DNA of 64,000 bases, taken from positions 37,339 to 101,338 of the forward strand of contig JAHIVC010000069.1 of the NCBI GenBank assembly GCA_018816945.1. Direction: 5' to 3'. The DNA is from Bacteroidota bacterium (GTDB lineage Bacteria; Bacteroidota; Bacteroidia; Bacteroidales; GCA-2711565). Made by a program: the position numbers and the translations under genes. Under the pieces are notes generated by a model. That model had not been told where the DNA came from. It ran no database searches and saw only the letters and a list, made by a program, of their open reading frames with translations. Positions 2,463-63,245 of this stretch are shown in pieces (position 1 is the first letter of the stretch; each line of letters begins with the position of its first letter).

Positions 2463-2580
2463 AAAAATTACAAATTACAAATTATAAATTACATCTGCCC
2501 AGACAGAACAAATTCCACACTTCGACACTTCGGCGATGCTCAGTGTGACGATTCCAATTCCCAATATTATTATAGGTTTT
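2463..2580. repeat. Heptamer tandem repeat (AAATTAC x4) next to a short GC-containing palindrome; weaker relative of the 30.0 kb and 41.3 kb elements
   Basis: aaattac aaattac aaattat aaattac at 2465-2492 is followed by tctgcccagaca. Then come cacacttcgacacttcgg and an inverted cacact/agtgtg pair. Confidence 0.5.
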
Positions 2581-23634: not shown

Positions 23635-23812
23635 GGGGATTTATTTTCATGATGAAAGTTTGAATAAAAGCAAATGATGAATTGGTAAAAGGGCGCGGTC
23701 GAAATAGAGTTTCGGCTTCCTGCCTGACGGTTTACCTGCCGAAGGAATGGCAGGCAGGCGCTCAAAATCCTTCAAAAACTTTCAATCATTAATAAAACTT
23801 AATGCAGATAAG

Positions 23813-26241: not shown

Positions 26242-27966
26242 ATGAGTTTCTTAATAGAAGTAAATAATAAAATGCTGGAGGCACAAGAGGGAGAACTGCT
26301 TTTGGAAACATTAAACAGAAATGGTATTAAGGTTCCAACATTGTGCCATCTGAAAAATTCAATGCCATCCGGTGCTTGCCGAATGTGTGTAGTTGAAAAC
26401 AAAAAGTCGGGTAAATTAATCACTGCTTGTTCTCATCCTTCCGAACAGGGAATGAATATATTAACGCATTCGCCAAGGGTAATTGAATCGCGTAAAACTA
26501 TCGTTGAATTGTTGCTTTCAAATCATCCCGACGATTGTTTGTATTGCGTTCGAAACAGGAATTGTGAACTCCAAACTTTGGCCGACGAACTTCAGGTTCG
26601 CGAACGAAAAATCAGAGGTAAAAAAAATAATTATAATATCGATCGCTCAAGCGCCAGTATTGTTAGGGATCCGGATAAATGTATTTTATGTGGCAGATGT
26701 GTCAGGGTTTGCCAGGATATGATGGGCGTTACAGCAATTGACTTTATTAACAGAGGAAGTCGCTCCGTAATCGGAACCAGTTTTAACCGTGGGTTGAATA
26801 CCTCAAGTTGTGTGAATTGTGGTCAGTGTATTTTGGTTTGCCCAACGGGTGCATTATCCGAAAAAAATCACTTTGGTGAAATTCAGGATGCACTTGCAAA
26901 CCCTGAAAAAACGGTGGTTATTCAATATGCACCTGCTATTTCAGTATCTATTGCCGAGGAATTTAATATGGAAGCAGGCAAAGATTTGAACGGGATTTTA
27001 AATTCGGCTTTACGAAAAATCGGTTTCGATCGCGTTTTTGATACCACCTTTTCAGCCGATTTAACCATCATGGAAGAATCTGCCGAATTGATTGATCGGA
27101 TTACTACCGGTGGCGTAATGCCAATGATAACAAGCTGTTGCCCTGCCTGGATCAAATATGCCGAAGAGTTTTATCCTGAACTGATACCGAATATCTCTTC
27201 GTGTAAATCGCCACAGCAAATGTTAGGAGCGGTTATCAAATCATATTGGGCAGAAAGCGAAGGAATTAAACCTGAAAATATTTACTCTGTTTCAATCATG
27301 CCGTGTACTGCCAAAAAGTTTGAAGCACAGAGAGAAGAAATGACCCAGCATGGAATAACCGATGTGGATGCCGTAATTACTACCCGTGAGTTAGGCGATT
27401 TTATTCGAATGATGGGTGTTGATGTGCATAATATTGAGCCTGAACAAGCCGATTCACCTCATGGTTTCATGAGTTCGGCCGGAAAACTGTTTGGCGCATC
27501 GGGAGGGGTAATGGAAGCAGCAATCCGAACAGCTTATTTTAAAATCACCGGTAAAGAATTAGCCGATCTTAAAATACCTGAAATAAGAGGACTTAAAGGT
27601 CGTAAAGAAGCAAAAATAAAGATTGGTGAACTTGAGATTGGTGTAGCCGTGGTGAATGGATTGGCAAATGCAGCCAAACTTCTTGATGAAATTAAAGCAG
27701 GAAAAAATGACATTCATTTTATTGAAGTGATGGCTTGCCCAGGAGGTTGCATCAATGGAGGAGGTCAACATATTGGCGCCTCTGAAGAAGCAATCAGGGC
27801 AAGAATGCAATCTATTTACTCGATTGATAATGATGCAATGATAAGGGTATCTCATAAAAACCCTGAAGTGATTGCTTTGTACGAAAACTATTTGGAAGAG
27901 CCATTGGGAAATAAAAGTCACCATCTCTTACATACTAAGTACACTAAAAGAAATGTGTTAAAATAA
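26242..27966 (+). CDS. hydA: [FeFe]-hydrogenase catalytic subunit, group A3-like
   Basis: The N-terminus has 2Fe-2S and NuoG-like clusters plus two ferredoxin motifs (CILCGRCVRVC, CVNCGQCILVCP). H-cluster motifs are L1 TSCCPAW, L2 MPCTAKKFE and L3 EVMACPGGCINGGGQ. Confidence 0.95.
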   Translation: MSFLIEVNNKMLEAQEGELLLETLNRNGIKVPTLCHLKNSMPSGACRMCVVENKKSGKLITACSHPSEQGMNILTHSPRVIESRKTIVELLLSNHPDDCLYCVRNRNCELQTLADELQVRERKIRGKKNNYNIDRSSASIVRDPDKCILCGRCVRVCQDMMGVTAIDFINRGSRSVIGTSFNRGLNTSSCVNCGQCILVCPTGALSEKNHFGEIQDALANPEKTVVIQYAPAISVSIAEEFNMEAGKDLNGILNSALRKIGFDRVFDTTFSADLTIMEESAELIDRITTGGVMPMITSCCPAWIKYAEEFYPELIPNISSCKSPQQMLGAVIKSYWAESEGIKPENIYSVSIMPCTAKKFEAQREEMTQHGITDVDAVITTRELGDFIRMMGVDVHNIEPEQADSPHGFMSSAGKLFGASGGVMEAAIRTAYFKITGKELADLKIPEIRGLKGRKEAKIKIGELEIGVAVVNGLANAAKLLDEIKAGKNDIHFIEVMACPGGCINGGGQHIGASEEAIRARMQSIYSIDNDAMIRVSHKNPEVIALYENYLEEPLGNKSHHLLHTKYTKRNVLK

Positions 27967-29957
27967 TGACAGTCAATATGGGACACGCAGAACGAAATAA
28001 GCTGGTTATCACGGTAAAAGACAAATGCCGTGTGTGCTATACCTGCGTGCGTGAATGCCCGGTTAAGGCAATAAAGATTAATAATGGGCAGGCAGAAGTA
28101 ATAAATGAAAGGTGCATCGGGTGTGGCAATTGTGTGAAGGTGTGCAGTCAGGGAGCGAAAGTTTTTCTTGACTCAAAAAGCGAGGTTGAACAATTGCTTA
28201 ATTCCGATGAAAGGGTCATCGCATGTATAGCTCCAAGCTTTCCGGCCGAGTTTTCTGATATTAAGGATTATCAGTGTTTGGTTAGAATGATTAAAAGATT
28301 GGGTTTTTTAAAAGTCGTGGAAGTTGCTTTTGGAGCCGATTTGATTGCATGTGAATATCGTCAGATGATAGAAAGCGATGACCCTACACCCTACATTTCC
28401 TCTGACTGTCCATCTATTGTTTATTATATTGAACATTATCATCCCGATTTGGTCAAAAATCTATCGCCGATAGCATCGCCAATGGTTGCAATAACAAGGG
28501 TGATTCATGAAGAATATGGAAAAGATGTGAAGGTTGTTTTTATCGGGCCCTGCATCGCCAAAAAAGCAGAATCAAATGAGGTTGATGAAGCCATCACGTT
28601 TAAAGAGCTTAGGGAATTATTTGAGAAATATCAAATCGTGCCGCAAAAAACCGATCGTTGCGATTTTGATCCGCCCAGAGCTTCCAGAGGAGCTGTATTT
28701 CCTGTTTCCAGGGGTTTAATTCAATCTATTGATAAAAGTGATGATTTGGTGAATGGAAAAATTATTACTGCTTCAGGTAAGGATAACTTCAAGGAAATTA
28801 TCAAAGAATTTGAAAGTGGGGAAATTGATTGTAAATACATGGAATTGCTATGCTGCAAAGGATGCATCATGGGCCCGGGTATGACCAATAAGGATAAGCG
28901 ATATTTCAAAAGAAGCCAAATCAGCAATTATGTAAAACAAAAGCTGGAAGTGTTTGATCAGGAAGAGTGGGAGGGCTATATTAAAAAGTACAGCCATCTC
29001 GACTTGTCACAAAATTTCACTTCAAACGATCGAAGAGTAGCCAGACCCGATCAGAAATCTATCGAGAAAGTGCTATTAAGCATGGGTAAGAGAAAGGCTT
29101 CTGATTATCTGAATTGCGGAACCTGTGGATATGATACGTGCATAGAACACGCGGTAGCTATTGTTCAGGGATATGCCGAAACTGAAATGTGTTTGCCATA
29201 TAGCATTGAAAAATTGCATAAATCAATCGAAGATTTAAATATTTCGAACGAAAATCTTGACAATGCGCGTATAGCACTTAAACAATCGGAAAAACTTGCG
29301 CATATGGGCCAATTGTCGGCCGGTATTGCCCACGAATTGAACAATCCTTTGGGGGTCATTACCATGTACAGCAATATCCTGAAGGAAGAAACAACTCCTG
29401 ATAATCCAATGTTTAAGGATTTGGAATTGATTGTTGACCAAACAGAGCGATGCAAAAAAATAGTAGGCGGCTTGTTGAATTTTGCCCGCAAAAGCCAGGT
29501 TAAAAAGGTTGAAACAAATCTCGAAAAATTTGTAATTCACAGCACTGAATCTATTGTTTTACCATCAAATATTGAATTGGAAGTAAAAACAAATCTGACT
29601 GATTCACTGGTAATGATCGATCAGGATCAGATGATGCAGGTTTTAACCAATCTGGAGAAAAATGCCATAGAAGCCATGCCAAACGGAGGTATTCTAAGCA
29701 TCGATATTACTGATACCGAGTCAAATTTTAAAATTATAATTTCCGATACGGGGGTTGGTATTCCGCAGGAGAACATGGATAAACTTTATACTCCGTTTTT
29801 TACAACAAAAGCATTGGGGAAAGGCACCGGACTAGGATTACCGTTGGTATATGGAATTGTTAAAATGCATAGGGGCCAAATTAATGTGGTGTCAAATACG
29901 GATAAGAGTAAAGGACAAACGGGTACTTCATTTATAATAGATGTTCCTAAATTTTAG
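27966..29957 (+). CDS. [FeFe]-hydrogenase-like (H-cluster domain) sensor histidine kinase
   Basis: 663 aa. N-terminal 2x[4Fe-4S] (CRVCYTCVRECP, CIGCGNCVKVC). Hydrogenase large-domain homology with variant motifs SSDCPS (L1), IGPCIAKKAE (L2) and ELLCCKGCIMGPG (L3). A CGTCGYDTC Fe-S-like segment, the HisKA H-box AHELNNPLG, and HATPase (DTGVGI, GTGLGL). ATG overlaps the hydA stop (TAATG). Confidence 0.85.
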   Translation: MTVNMGHAERNKLVITVKDKCRVCYTCVRECPVKAIKINNGQAEVINERCIGCGNCVKVCSQGAKVFLDSKSEVEQLLNSDERVIACIAPSFPAEFSDIKDYQCLVRMIKRLGFLKVVEVAFGADLIACEYRQMIESDDPTPYISSDCPSIVYYIEHYHPDLVKNLSPIASPMVAITRVIHEEYGKDVKVVFIGPCIAKKAESNEVDEAITFKELRELFEKYQIVPQKTDRCDFDPPRASRGAVFPVSRGLIQSIDKSDDLVNGKIITASGKDNFKEIIKEFESGEIDCKYMELLCCKGCIMGPGMTNKDKRYFKRSQISNYVKQKLEVFDQEEWEGYIKKYSHLDLSQNFTSNDRRVARPDQKSIEKVLLSMGKRKASDYLNCGTCGYDTCIEHAVAIVQGYAETEMCLPYSIEKLHKSIEDLNISNENLDNARIALKQSEKLAHMGQLSAGIAHELNNPLGVITMYSNILKEETTPDNPMFKDLELIVDQTERCKKIVGGLLNFARKSQVKKVETNLEKFVIHSTESIVLPSNIELEVKTNLTDSLVMIDQDQMMQVLTNLEKNAIEAMPNGGILSIDITDTESNFKIIISDTGVGIPQENMDKLYTPFFTTKALGKGTGLGLPLVYGIVKMHRGQINVVSNTDKSKGQTGTSFIIDVPKF

Positions 29958-29968
29958 GGTTTTAATCA

Positions 29969-30105
29969 AGAAGACAGAATACAGAAGACACAAGTAATAA
30001 GTAATAAGTAATAAGTAACAACCTGCCTGCCGCAGGCAGGGTAACAAGTATCAAGTAACCAGTAACCAGCAACCAGTAACCAGCAACCAGTAACCAGCAA
30101 ACTAA
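29969..30105. repeat. Intergenic element: 7-nt periodic tandem repeats flanking the GC-rich palindrome CCTGCCTGCCGCAGGCAGG
   Basis: agaagac/agaatac/.../ataagta x3 on the left, and the palindrome at 30022-30040. On the right, accagta/accagca alternate about six times. Confidence 0.85.
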
Positions 30106-41225: not shown

Positions 41226-41335
41226 TAGAATGTAGAATGCAGAATGTAGAATGTAGAAACCAGCAACCACCTGCCTGCCGCAGGCAGGGCAACCAGAAAC
41301 CAGAAACCAGAAACCAGAAACCAGAAACCAGAAAC
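41226..41335. repeat. Second copy of the heptamer-repeat / CCTGCCTGCCGCAGGCAGG palindrome element
   Basis: tagaatg-type heptamers x4-5 on the left, and a palindrome at 41270-41288 identical to that at 30022-40. On the right, ccagaaa x5. Confidence 0.85.
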
Positions 41336-54897: not shown

Positions 54898-55211
54898 AAC
54901 TAGCTGATGGTAAATTAATATTAAATTTCATTTGTATATGTTTCTGAAGTCATAGAAAAAGATTTTATTATTATATACAATTGACCTCTAAAAATCTCAA
55001 AAAGTTCTATAAAGCGAATATCGGAAAACTTAGGCCTTTTTCATAATAAAAAAACTTATATTTTATAAGATTTATTAATCCCTTTTTCCATGCTTGCCGA
55101 TCTAAAAAACTAAAAGTAAGTTGTGATTTAAATATGAATAAATTGTTGGTGATTTTGTTTATAAATTTTAAAAGCACTTGCTACAGAATGGTTTCAAGTG
55201 GCTGATTATAA

Positions 55212-55290
55212 GTGTCATGGGTAGTAATCCCGAATCATCGGGAGAACTTACGACCTTCCCGACTTCTAGTCGGGACGCGCTAACCAGATT
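55212..55290 (-). repeat. tRNA-like element, 3'-type copy 1 (pseudo-tRNA with hairpin insertion)
   Basis: The minus strand reads TGGTTAGCGCG-TCCCGACTAGAAGTCGGGA-AGGTCGTAAGTTC-[TCCCGATGATTCGGGA]-TTACTACCCATGACAC. No 5' acceptor strand. Followed by a hairpin. Confidence 0.6.
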
Positions 55291-55330
55291 TTATAAAAAA
55301 AAGAGTCTTAGCATGTTGCTAAAACTCTTA

Positions 55331-55408
55331 GTGTCATGGTGTTAATCCCGAATCTCCGGGAGAACTAACGACCTTCCCGACTTCCAGTCGGGACGCGCTA
55401 ACCAGATT
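55331..55408 (-). repeat. tRNA-like element, 3'-type copy 2
   Basis: Same architecture, with anticodon-like loop CTGGAAG and T-stem GTTA/TAAC (copy 1 has GTAA/TTAC). Followed by a hairpin plus T8. Confidence 0.6.
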
Positions 55409-55452
55409 GTATCAAAAAAAAGAGCTTCATCATCGTGTTGAAACTCTCAGTG

Positions 55453-55527
55453 TCGGGGTAGTAAGATTCGAACTTACGACCTCCTGCTCCCAAAGCAGGC
55501 GCGCTAACCGGACTACGCTATACCCCG
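55453..55527 (-). tRNA. tRNA-Pro (anticodon TGG)
   Basis: Hand-folded 75-nt cloverleaf. Acceptor CGGGGTA/TACCCCG+A, anticodon arm CCTGC-TTTGGGA-GCAGG, and T arm GTAAG-TTCGAAT-CTTAC. Followed by a hairpin plus T8 terminator. Confidence 0.9.
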
Positions 55528-55570
55528 TTTATTTTTATTTAATAAGTATTTTAAAGAACAATTTTATTTT

Positions 55571-55652
55571 CCAATCCTACGACCTTCCCGACTTCCAGTC
55601 GGGATGCGCTAACCTGATGGAGTTTATCCCGAAGATTCGGGACTATACCCCG
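55571..55652 (-). repeat. tRNA-like element, 5'-type copy A
   Basis: The minus strand reads CGGGGTATAG-[TCCCGAATCTTCGGGA]-TAAACTCCATCAGGTTAGCGCA-TCCCGACTGGAAGTCGGGA-AGGTCGTAGGATTGG. It has a 5' acceptor strand but no complete T arm or 3' acceptor. Confidence 0.6.
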
Positions 55653-55694
55653 TATATTTTTATTAATAAGTATTTTAAAGAACAATTTTATTTT

Positions 55695-55777
55695 CCAATC
55701 CTATGACCTTCCCGACTTCCAGTCGGGACGCGCTAACCGAATGGAGTTTATCCCGAAGATTCGGGACTTATACCCCG
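55695..55777 (-). repeat. tRNA-like element, 5'-type copy B
   Basis: Near-identical to copy A, and preceded by the same AT-rich spacer (ATTGTTCTTT(T)AAA..ATTATTAA..) that also precedes tRNA-Pro. Confidence 0.6.
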
Positions 55778-55826
55778 TATTTTTTTATTTTAATAATTAT
55801 TTAAAAGAACAATTCTCCTTTTGTTT

Positions 55827-55916
<90 letters not shown>

Positions 55917-62117: not shown

Positions 62118-62909
62118 TTAGAAATAAAGGACATAGTCAATACCGAACACATCTTCTTCTTTTCCGTCTGCAATAATTAAACATTGGTATGTTTTTTTAC
62201 TCTCCACACCTTTTAAATTTAAACGGAATCTGACAGAAGTCTTTGGGTATATCCCTTTCTTAGATGAGGTAATAACTTTTACGGATTTACCAGTTTCATC
62301 GAAAAGCTCCATCGAAAGTTCGGGAGCGATATAGTGTTGGCCTGTATTGACTATATCGACTGCTAAATACAAATTGTCGCCTTCTGTAATTAGTGTTGGG
62401 TTTAAAAAAGTTAATGCACCCATTCCTTTATTTTCTATTTCGGTAACCATTTGTATCGCGTAACGCGTTACAGTATTTATGTTCAGTTCTCCTTTTTGTT
62501 CAGGATCAATCGGGTTCACCCCTTCAATCATTATTATGCTCCAAAAAGTTCCGCTCAATGTATCGGTTTTTGGAATAACAATTTCGTATTGAATGAAACG
62601 ATTTTCTTTCCCCTTTACAATTAAAGTTTTAGGACTGTAATTAATCCACGATGCGTTTGATCTTTCATGCGTAACAGGTTCATCATAAAAAGTGTAATCT
62701 TCATAATTATAGAGTAAATCTGTCTGATAGATTCTCACTTCCTGATCCATTTCTTCACTATTGTGTAATTTGATTTCTCCTCTAATAGTATCTCCCCCTA
62801 TACCACTATGTAGATGTTTTAGGCTACCTAAAACCTCTATTGATGCCAATGATAATAAAGGCAGCATGCCAATAAAAATCAATGCAAGACAATATTTTAT
62901 TTTTTTCAT
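62118..62909 (-). CDS. Secreted two-domain Ig-like protein (chaperone-like / DUF916-DUF3324-like)
   Basis: 263 aa with a signal peptide. Two beta-sandwich-like halves (GEIKLHNSEEMDQEVRIYQ...; LYLAVDIVNTGQHYIAPELSMELFDETGK). The family assignment is from memory only. Confidence 0.4.
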   Translation of the reverse strand: MKKIKYCLALIFIGMLPLLSLASIEVLGSLKHLHSGIGGDTIRGEIKLHNSEEMDQEVRIYQTDLLYNYEDYTFYDEPVTHERSNASWINYSPKTLIVKGKENRFIQYEIVIPKTDTLSGTFWSIIMIEGVNPIDPEQKGELNINTVTRYAIQMVTEIENKGMGALTFLNPTLITEGDNLYLAVDIVNTGQHYIAPELSMELFDETGKSVKVITSSKKGIYPKTSVRFRLNLKGVESKKTYQCLIIADGKEEDVFGIDYVLYF

Positions 62910-63245
62910 AATTTTAAATTTTATTTTTTAATTATCATATGCCTGCCTATCGGCAGACAGAAAATGCCCTATAATCATCTCTGTTGTATAAATTTATTTT
63001 ATGGGCATTTCATCTATTTCTTTATTAAATTGAATTATTAATTCCTTCCGGTGTAATGGTTTGCATAAGATAACTCTTCCATTTATTAAATTTTAGCATC
63101 TGTTTAAATGATTAAAATGAGGTAATTCACGCTTTGAAAATTCAACAGTTTTGATTTTAAAGAAGAATTACTTCAATACAGGATCAGAACCTGAATAACT
63201 TAAATAGAGGATTTGTAAAATGAAAGATCACTTTCGATGCGAATA

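Follow-up and report, generated by a model that had tools for sequence, protein, structure and literature searches.

What is the origin of an identical, GC-rich palindrome that lies between genes at two places of one contig, each time among 7-nt tandem repeats, and does it act on the genes around it? We analyzed the 64-kb stretch of DNA that contains both copies (the window; GC content ~36%). The window encodes T9SS sorting-domain and GldM genes, indicating a Bacteroidota host. We refer to the 19-base palindrome, CCTGCCTGCCGCAGGCAGG, as PAL. A sequence-only reading of the window had reported that the two copies (Table 1) are identical and that one lies between a kinase gene and a REC gene and the other between a NifX-like and a CGGC gene, and we found it correct on both points.

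A discrete insertion within heptamer arrays

The occurrence of PAL among heptamers is real and well above chance level. Exact PAL is expected 0.01 times in dinucleotide shuffles and was observed twice. When we scanned the window for tandem repeats with periods of 4 to 12, we obtained five runs of period 7, four of which border the two PALs, and zero runs of any other period in this range. In total, the 64 kb contain two exact PALs and three variants, all intergenic and all single copies. Both as RNA and as single-stranded DNA, PAL is predicted to fold into a hairpin with an 8-bp stem and a 3-nt loop (-14.6 kcal/mol). In the predicted RNA fold of the region, this hairpin stands alone and the A/C-rich flanks are unstructured.

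Copy 1 occupies the 188-nt spacer between genes for a HydA-like sensor histidine kinase and a receiver-domain (REC) protein, within an [FeFe]-hydrogenase cluster, and copy 2 the 146-nt spacer between the NifX-like gene and a gene encoding a CGGC domain. The kinase (27966-29957) carries [FeFe]-hydrogenase large-subunit-like and Fe-S domains fused to HisKA/HATPase, as in a sensory-hydrogenase-type histidine kinase, and its neighbors are HydABC-like genes and the HydE/F/G maturases.

The heptamers had been described as differing between the two sides of each palindrome. This is true but incomplete, as without PAL each spacer is a single in-phase array whose unit sequence drifts stepwise from one end to the other. 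With the 19 nt removed, the copy 1 spacer is one unbroken array of 16 units, AGAAGAC AGAATAC AGAAGAC ACAAGTA ATAAGTA (x3) ACAA^GTA ACAAGTA TCAAGTA (ACCAGTA ACCAGCA) x3, where the caret marks the site of PAL. Likewise, the copy 2 spacer is one unbroken array of 13 units, TAGAATG TAGAATG CAGAATG TAGAATG TAGAAAC CAGCAAC CA^GCAAC CAGAAAC (x6). For the joined arrays, identity at lag 7 is 0.82 (copy 1) and 0.87 (copy 2), compared to 0.32 or less at neighboring lags, and the two sides are in register only at offset 0, i.e., when exactly 19 nt are deleted. The split point was ACMA^G in all five insertions of this clade (two in the window, two in the relative L127, and one in the relative L138). PAL is thus a discrete 19-bp insertion at a fixed position of the repeat unit in this clade.

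Table 1. Positions of PAL-related features in the window, and content of the two orthologous junctions in relatives
Feature	Position in window	Strand	Neighbor protein identity	Content
Copy 1 array, upstream part	29969..30021	+		7 units (AGAAGAC, AGAATAC, AGAAGAC, ACAAGTA, ATAAGTA x3) plus ACAA, the first 4 nt of the PAL-split unit
PAL copy 1	30022..30040	+		19-bp insertion at ACAA^GTA
Copy 1 array, downstream part	30041..30099	+		GTA, ACAAGTA, TCAAGTA, (ACCAGTA/ACCAGCA) x3; in phase with upstream part
Copy 2 array, upstream part	41226..41269	+		TAGAATG, TAGAATG, CAGAATG, TAGAATG, TAGAAAC, CAGCAAC, CA
PAL copy 2	41270..41288	+		Identical to copy 1; inserted at ACCA^GCA
Copy 2 array, downstream part	41289..41335	+		GCAAC, CAGAAAC x6
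40-nt PAL-related element	23719..23758	+		PAL's two arms at its ends
AATTTTA x3 array and PAL variant GCCTGCCTATCGGCAGACAG	62910..62960			Array 62910-62931, variant 62941-62960
AAATTAC x4 array and TCTGCCCAGACAGA	2465..2507			Array 2465-2493, TCTGCCCAGACAGA 2494-2507
NifX-CGGC, L138 (HGW-Bacteroidetes-17, GCA_002840985.1)			CGGC 98%	12-unit array (…CCAGCAA CCAGTAA CCAGAAA…), PAL absent
NifX-CGGC, L139-L142 (four independent assemblies, mutually identical)			CGGC 95%	10-unit array, PAL absent
NifX-CGGC, L123			CGGC 90%	39 nt, AT-rich, no array
NifX-CGGC, L124			CGGC 75%	38 nt, AT-rich, no array
NifX-CGGC, L125			CGGC 73%	46 nt, AT-rich, no array
Kinase-REC, L126/L127			REC 98%	PAL at equivalent position and second copy; arrays differ on both sides
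Kinase-REC, L128			REC 85%	Pure 17-unit (GWATCAA) array, PAL absent
Kinase-REC, L129			REC 83%	102 nt, no array
Kinase-REC, L143			REC 80%	11 nt

At five listed sites, PAL has an exact 7-nt direct repeat on its flanks, compared to 0.02 expected. These five are the two window copies and copies in L045, L055, and L086; all lie in heptamer arrays and preserve their phase. PAL is also in phase within an array of period 8 (L085) and within an array on a viral contig (L130). Insertion within 7-nt arrays may duplicate 7 bp of the target; outside arrays, no target duplication was seen around PAL at the listed sites. We rejected a MITE, as the inserted unit is only 19 bp, compared to 70-300 bp, and there is no duplication outside arrays.

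Three weaker relatives had also been proposed in the window, of which two are real. The element at 23719-23758 has the form CCTGCCTG-[24 nt with hairpin CCTGCC-GAAGGAAT-GGCAGG]-CAGGCAGG. Between a REC gene and a NuoE-like gene there is a conserved hairpin, and this element precisely interrupts its 3′ arm. The relatives L129 and L128 carry this hairpin uninterrupted (tttcggctt^cgctc, insert absent). The second element lies ~30 nt upstream of the start of a minus-strand gene (62118-62909); its PAL variant resembles CCTGCCTACGGCAGGCAGG, a variant present in L126/L127. The third, at 2494-2507, is only a possible decayed PAL, a weak assignment.

Stems of CCTGCC/GGCAGG with loops unlike that of PAL account for every other GC-rich hairpin in the window, a repeat in the tRNA region aside. 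There, two minus-strand tRNA genes (55453-55527 and 55828-55916) are interleaved with 118-124-nt tandem repeats (55211-55814), each of which holds the hairpin CCCGACTTCCAGTCGGG (four copies). The arrangement resembles the duplication of a unit made up of a tRNA and its spacer.

Filled and empty sites in relatives

We fetched orthologous junctions through their neighboring proteins (Table 1). As the sequence-only reading had supposed, the heptamer flanks vary by strain: at the NifX-CGGC junction, arrays of 0, 10, 12, and 13 units occur among relatives whose CGGC proteins are 90-100% identical. The kinase-REC spacer is as short as 11 nt and exceeds 256 nt at its longest. In L126/L127, PAL at this junction has the flanks GTAACAA^PAL^GTAACAAGTATCAAG and G, not C, as its center base, and the second copy, variant CCTGCCTACGGCAGGCAGG, follows 49 nt downstream, likewise at ACAA^GTA. 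We also found a reciprocal site. Between a RimK-like gene and a DUF134 gene, L138 has a spacer of ~480 nt with an (AGATTCA AGACACA)n array and a PAL variant inserted at ACAA^GAT, whereas the window has 95 nt with neither.

Filled and empty sites at orthologous junctions thus place the array first and PAL later, and the order of events indicated by these comparisons is short junction, heptamer array, PAL insertion. Arrays and PAL both turn over within a few percent of protein divergence. As the four independent assemblies of one relative (L139-L142) carry identical arrays, variation within a population is not visible there, and the phase-variation-like instability that had been envisaged was not borne out. 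At the kinase-REC junction, PAL was kept in two strains despite changed arrays, which is compatible with some selection.

Several features of these loci deserve mention in their own right. In L138, ~1600-1900 holds an array of about nine 14-mers (AGATTCAAGACACA) with the PAL variant CCTGCCGGCCGCAGGTAGG; the counterpart of this spacer in the window is empty. L138 also has a degenerate PAL, CCTGCGGCAAGGCAGG, in the convergent EamA/DUF5916 spacer. Short-read contigs from the window's own strain (Logan, SRR6514274) break at the NifX-CGGC array-plus-PAL element: L122 stops 75 nt past the NifX stop codon and L001 resumes 60 nt ahead of the CGGC start codon. In L125, an IS200-like Y1 transposase gene (PF01797; 1072-1569) lies directly upstream of the orthologous DUF134-NifX-CGGC operon. 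We considered it as a linked gene and rejected it, since it has no counterpart in the window or other loci; its position beside an operon that lacks both array and PAL is probably a coincidence.

Distribution and variants of PAL across phyla

We scanned one genome per species for exact matches; counts refer to the matches listed and are lower bounds. The family had been suspected to extend beyond the two window sites, and it does: exact PAL is carried by more than 120 DNA stretches, and these represent at least 15 phyla. By record title, the matches listed include ~47 from Bacteroidota, ~28 from Acidobacteriota, 13 from Desulfobacterota/'delta', seven from candidate-phyla-radiation lineages, and four from Planctomycetota, as well as Ignavibacteriota, Omnitrophota, Elusimicrobiota, Nitrospirota, Verrucomicrobiota, and others. 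Most listed matches are metagenome-assembled genomes; PAL is also found in isolates (the complete genome of Algoriphagus halophilus, Winogradskyella, and Lutimonas) and in megabase long-read contigs of several phyla. Composition predicts ~4 matches in the whole collection, compared to at least 128 sites observed. Among the listed sites, 75 of 128 are in loci with less than 50% GC, where at most ~2 are expected, and only seven of these 75 are inside ORFs (at least 100 codons). In viral contigs, PAL had six matches compared to two and zero for two composition-matched control palindromes, counts too small to speak for or against a phage as its vector.

The flanks of PAL show a polar preference, R^PAL^G, often GAT. 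Among 125 listed sites, position -1 is G in 86 and A in 28 (a purine in 114), and positions +1 to +3 prefer G, A, and T (70, 60, and 61 sites). The flank pair G..G occurs at 48 listed sites, compared to ten with the palindromic pair G..C. Relative to GC skew, PAL, oriented by its central C, is distributed 15:32 (p=0.02), a weak bias that is confounded with gene direction; we therefore set aside a replication-strand bias.

At eight of 126 listed sites, an exact short-period run is found no farther than 60 nt from PAL, compared to 1.2 at random positions. Seven is the commonest tandem period in the listed PAL loci (24 of 51 arrays), and most of these arrays lack PAL. In addition, 'patchworks' of successive heptamer or octamer arrays with differing units occur in long non-coding stretches of Omnitrophota, NPL-UPA2, and Bacteroidales (L021 4380-4900; L093 3940-4160 and 5300-5640; L106 420-1300; L060 1180-1400), and the arrays of the Bacteroidales locus L060 share CCAGCAA/CCAGTAA units with the window.

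No gene regularly accompanies PAL in the listed loci. In an all-against-all BLAST of 781 ORFs from 120 listed loci, no recurring protein was adjacent to PAL and no family occurred in more than nine loci. Pfam scans and tblastn of the window detected no transposase, reverse transcriptase, or HUH/Y1 gene. In a single listed case, Allomuricauda sp. CP2A (L111 3156-3235), PAL lies in the D-loop region of a tRNA-like sequence; the Rfam tRNA match (32.3 bits) is barely above the gathering threshold and ARAGORN makes no call. Since this was the one case and ARAGORN and Rfam revealed nothing general, we rejected a tRNA or tmRNA origin.

Among near-exact variants, the stem is broken in ten, contains a wobble pair in six, and is compensated in one. 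Such a predominance of broken stems is expected if the copies decay from a master sequence, and not if selection shapes the structure. One variant, in which a transition alters the loop-closing base pair, is shared by several phyla (CCTGCCTACCGCAGGCAGG, or CCTGCCTGCGGTAGGCAGG on the other strand; L126 118-136, L090, L096, L067, L048, and L116) and may be a second master sequence. Apart from PAL, the GC-rich hairpins met most often in the listed low-GC PAL loci have CCTGCC/GGCAGG stems with other loops. Beside the AAATTAC array of the window, the word CTTCGACACTTCGGCGATGCTCAGTGTGACG (2513-2550) resembles words that adjoin PAL in Acidobacteriota (L047, L049: ...CCCTTCGGCTTCGCTCAGGA...). Other words recur in several phyla, such as gtcattccgag...cgaggaatc with PAL nested within it, which suggests that intergenic hairpin words shared across phyla form a wider set.

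Origin, alternatives, and relation to known repeats

We think it probable, though well short of certain, that PAL is a non-autonomous dispersed 19-bp palindrome, inserted late into pre-existing, slippage-prone arrays by the copying of a single-strand hairpin. Two layers are involved. First, intergenic junctions that were once short acquire A/C-rich, unstructured heptanucleotide simple-sequence arrays, which turn over through point mutation and, presumably, replication slippage; their turnover between strains is seen directly, and slippage is the presumed cause. Slipped-strand mispairing is the standard account of heptamer repeat arrays (PMC4679880). Second, as the filled and empty sites show, PAL was inserted later and precisely, with no evident target duplication, at ACMA^G of an existing array or in a hairpin arm. 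It would be copied in trans as a single-stranded hairpin and would enter DNA wherever repeat arrays or hairpin arms, for example, leave it briefly single-stranded or slipped. As PAL has an intrinsic flank polarity but none relative to transcription, the process appears to act at the level of DNA rather than transcripts.

By analogy, the nearest mechanistic precedent may be the processing of REP hairpins by HUH/Y1 enzymes of the TnpA-REP/RAYT type. Processing of REP and IS200/IS605 hairpins by HUH/Y1 enzymes occurs on the lagging-strand template and leaves no duplication. Y1 subclasses with 'atypical' hairpins have been reported in Bacteroidetes, Acidobacteria, and Planctomycetes (PMC6006769).

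A 19-mer identical across phyla would not be expected of a non-autonomous element and is hard to explain if PAL is one; alternatively, the identity could reflect a conserved function. A bolder proposal, which we offer only tentatively, is that PAL is a pan-bacterial 19-bp mobile element, the smallest mobile DNA recognized, that is kept identical in at least 15 phyla as the substrate of a conserved, putative single-strand DNA enzyme; this enzyme would target structure-prone DNA (repeat arrays, hairpin arms) and would itself pass between phyla by horizontal transfer.

Does PAL instead act in transcripts? The sequence-only reading had raised a hairpin terminator or processing site, with heptamer number altering the spacing of downstream promoters. 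As a functional RNA element, PAL would be a terminator, attenuator, or processing/stabilizing hairpin, with heptamer number tuning the gene that follows. Each of the five window elements separates co-directional genes and precedes a native A-rich leader by 30-46 nt or more, the PAL hairpin is stable and isolated between unstructured flanks, and L126/L127 keep PAL at the equivalent position. Heptamer arrays ahead of start codons have been suggested as sites for translational regulators (PMC4679880), and REPs can stabilize upstream mRNA (PMC6006769). However, a terminator fails because the sense strand has no U-tract after PAL; we detected no intrinsic terminator match on the sense strand at either copy, and a weak antisense match at copy 1 only. 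The gap of only 11 nt between kinase and REC in L143 indicates a single operon. Gene order is unchanged in relatives that have no PAL despite 95-98% identical neighboring proteins, and also in more distant ones that have no insert at all; a requirement for the element at these junctions is thus unsupported. A role tied to the transcript sense is likewise unsupported by the orientation of PAL (set by its central C) relative to flanking genes, which is the same at 20 and opposite at 25 of 45 co-directional listed sites. In addition, variants break the stem without compensation, and the PAL region matches no Rfam family at the gathering threshold or at E<=1. The regulatory interpretation is therefore mostly unsupported, and we regard a functional RNA as unlikely. 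The element, which lengthens the untranslated spacer by ~100-180 nt, is probably neutral or mildly modulatory for the host. By analogy with REPs, a U-tract-free intercistronic hairpin of this stability could act as a barrier to 3′ exonucleases, and a REP-like effect on mRNA stability or processing is possible.

A different origin would be spread of PAL by ectopic gene conversion or template switching through heptamer homology, or its recurrence through (CCTG)n/(CAGG)n slippage followed by palindromization. Both window copies are in ACCAGYA/ACAAGTA-type units at an equal position in the unit, and similar units occur at unlinked loci and in L060. PAL is itself composed of CCTG/CAGG tetramers, and its CCTGCC/GGCAGG stem recurs with other loops in the listed loci, as described above. 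Nonetheless, we consider this origin quite unlikely. The copies share only ~5 nt of flank (ACMA^G), and PAL is also found in arrays of unrelated units (L045, L055, L085, L086, and L130), in a hairpin arm, and in non-repetitive DNA. As for slippage, it is improbable that an identical 19-mer would arise independently in at least 15 phyla.

A conserved protein-binding or DNA-structural site, kept identical by selection rather than mobility, would fit the cross-phylum 19/19 identity, the polar flanks, and the intergenic placement. Binding of nucleoid proteins, gyrase, or a replication factor, the roles that would apply here, has been proposed for BIMEs. Yet PAL is present or absent at the same junction in near-identical strains, its density is low and irregular, its variants decay, and no gene recurs nearby in the listed loci, making such a site very unlikely. 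Finally, an assembly or binning artifact, which the ends of short-read contigs at the element and the predominance of metagenome-assembled genomes might suggest, is effectively refuted and has a negligible probability: the same structures are present in independent JGI, ENA, Logan, and NCBI assemblies, PAL is present in isolate genomes and megabase long-read contigs, and its flanks match the composition of each host.

The palindrome had been taken for a member of an undescribed family. This holds for its sequence, as a full-text literature search returned no match to PAL, but not for the architecture, which is familiar from the small dispersed repeats (SDRs) of Nostoc and from heptamer arrays. 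By analogy, PAL appears to most resemble cyanobacterial SDRs in heptamer arrays, and REP elements. In 2008, Elhai and colleagues reportedly described small palindromic dispersed repeats (SDR1-8) within tandem heptamers in Nostoc punctiforme and relatives; SDRs are said to be ~20 nt long, to lie in heptamers and hairpins, and to be polymorphic between relatives, by a mechanism that was not known. Like these SDRs, PAL is a ~20-nt non-coding dispersed repeat in heptamers and a hairpin, with filled and empty sites, no encoded protein, and no duplication outside arrays. PAL differs in sequence, in its Bacteroidota host, and in being a near-perfect palindrome that is identical in at least 15 phyla, whereas SDRs are reported to be restricted to cyanobacteria, mostly Nostocaceae (PMC5861425, which like PMC3116915 cites the 2008 study).

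With REPs, BIMEs, and REPINs, PAL shares the form of a short, extragenic, multicopy palindrome that is mostly intergenic, forms a hairpin in single-stranded DNA or RNA, has no target duplication, and possibly stabilizes mRNA. The hallmark of REPs is a GTAG/CGTC tag (GT[AG]G guide) at the foot of the hairpin (PMC3733652), which PAL lacks: within 8 nt of PAL, these tags are at background only (GTAG 8 and CGTC 7 of 126 listed sites, compared to 9 and 10 for the controls GATC and TCGA). Unlike REPINs and BIMEs, PAL is nearly always single, with close inverted pairs only in L034 and L084 among 120 listed loci. REPs are also lineage specific, which PAL is not, and no RAYT gene was found in the window, nor does any protein family recur next to PAL in the 120 listed loci.

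The window arrays themselves are ordinary heptanucleotide simple-sequence repeats. Such arrays are known as cyanobacterial STRRs and long simple sequence repeats (LSSRs) (Mrazek 2007, summarized in PMC4679880), and TAACTGA heptamers are known from Beggiatoaceae, Cyanobacteria, and Bacteroidetes (PMC4679880). The window arrays resemble these: they are tandem and intergenic, have no predicted structure, often precede start codons, are strain specific in length and copy number, and favor period 7. They differ in their units (ACCAGYA, ACAAGTA, ATAAGTA, TAGAATG, and AGAAGAC) and in the inserted palindrome, which is absent from those reports.

PAL itself is best filed with small palindromic dispersed repeats. 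Two features stand out: the clean, stepwise record of its insertion, and the 19/19 identity in at least 15 phyla. If the pan-bacterial proposal were true, PAL would be one member of a larger, undescribed set of intergenic 'hairpin words'. On the practical side, array-plus-PAL elements break short-read assemblies, and translating them can yield spurious small ORFs. How REPs, SDRs, and other very short palindromic repeats arise and spread is an old question. In this clade, operon junctions are seen in stages, bare, with an array, and with an array and a precise 19-bp PAL, in genomes whose neighboring proteins are 73-98% identical. As these staged junctions provide the order of events, the exact inserted unit, the target motif ACMA^G, and the polarity, a mobilizing enzyme becomes searchable by phylogenetic profiling.
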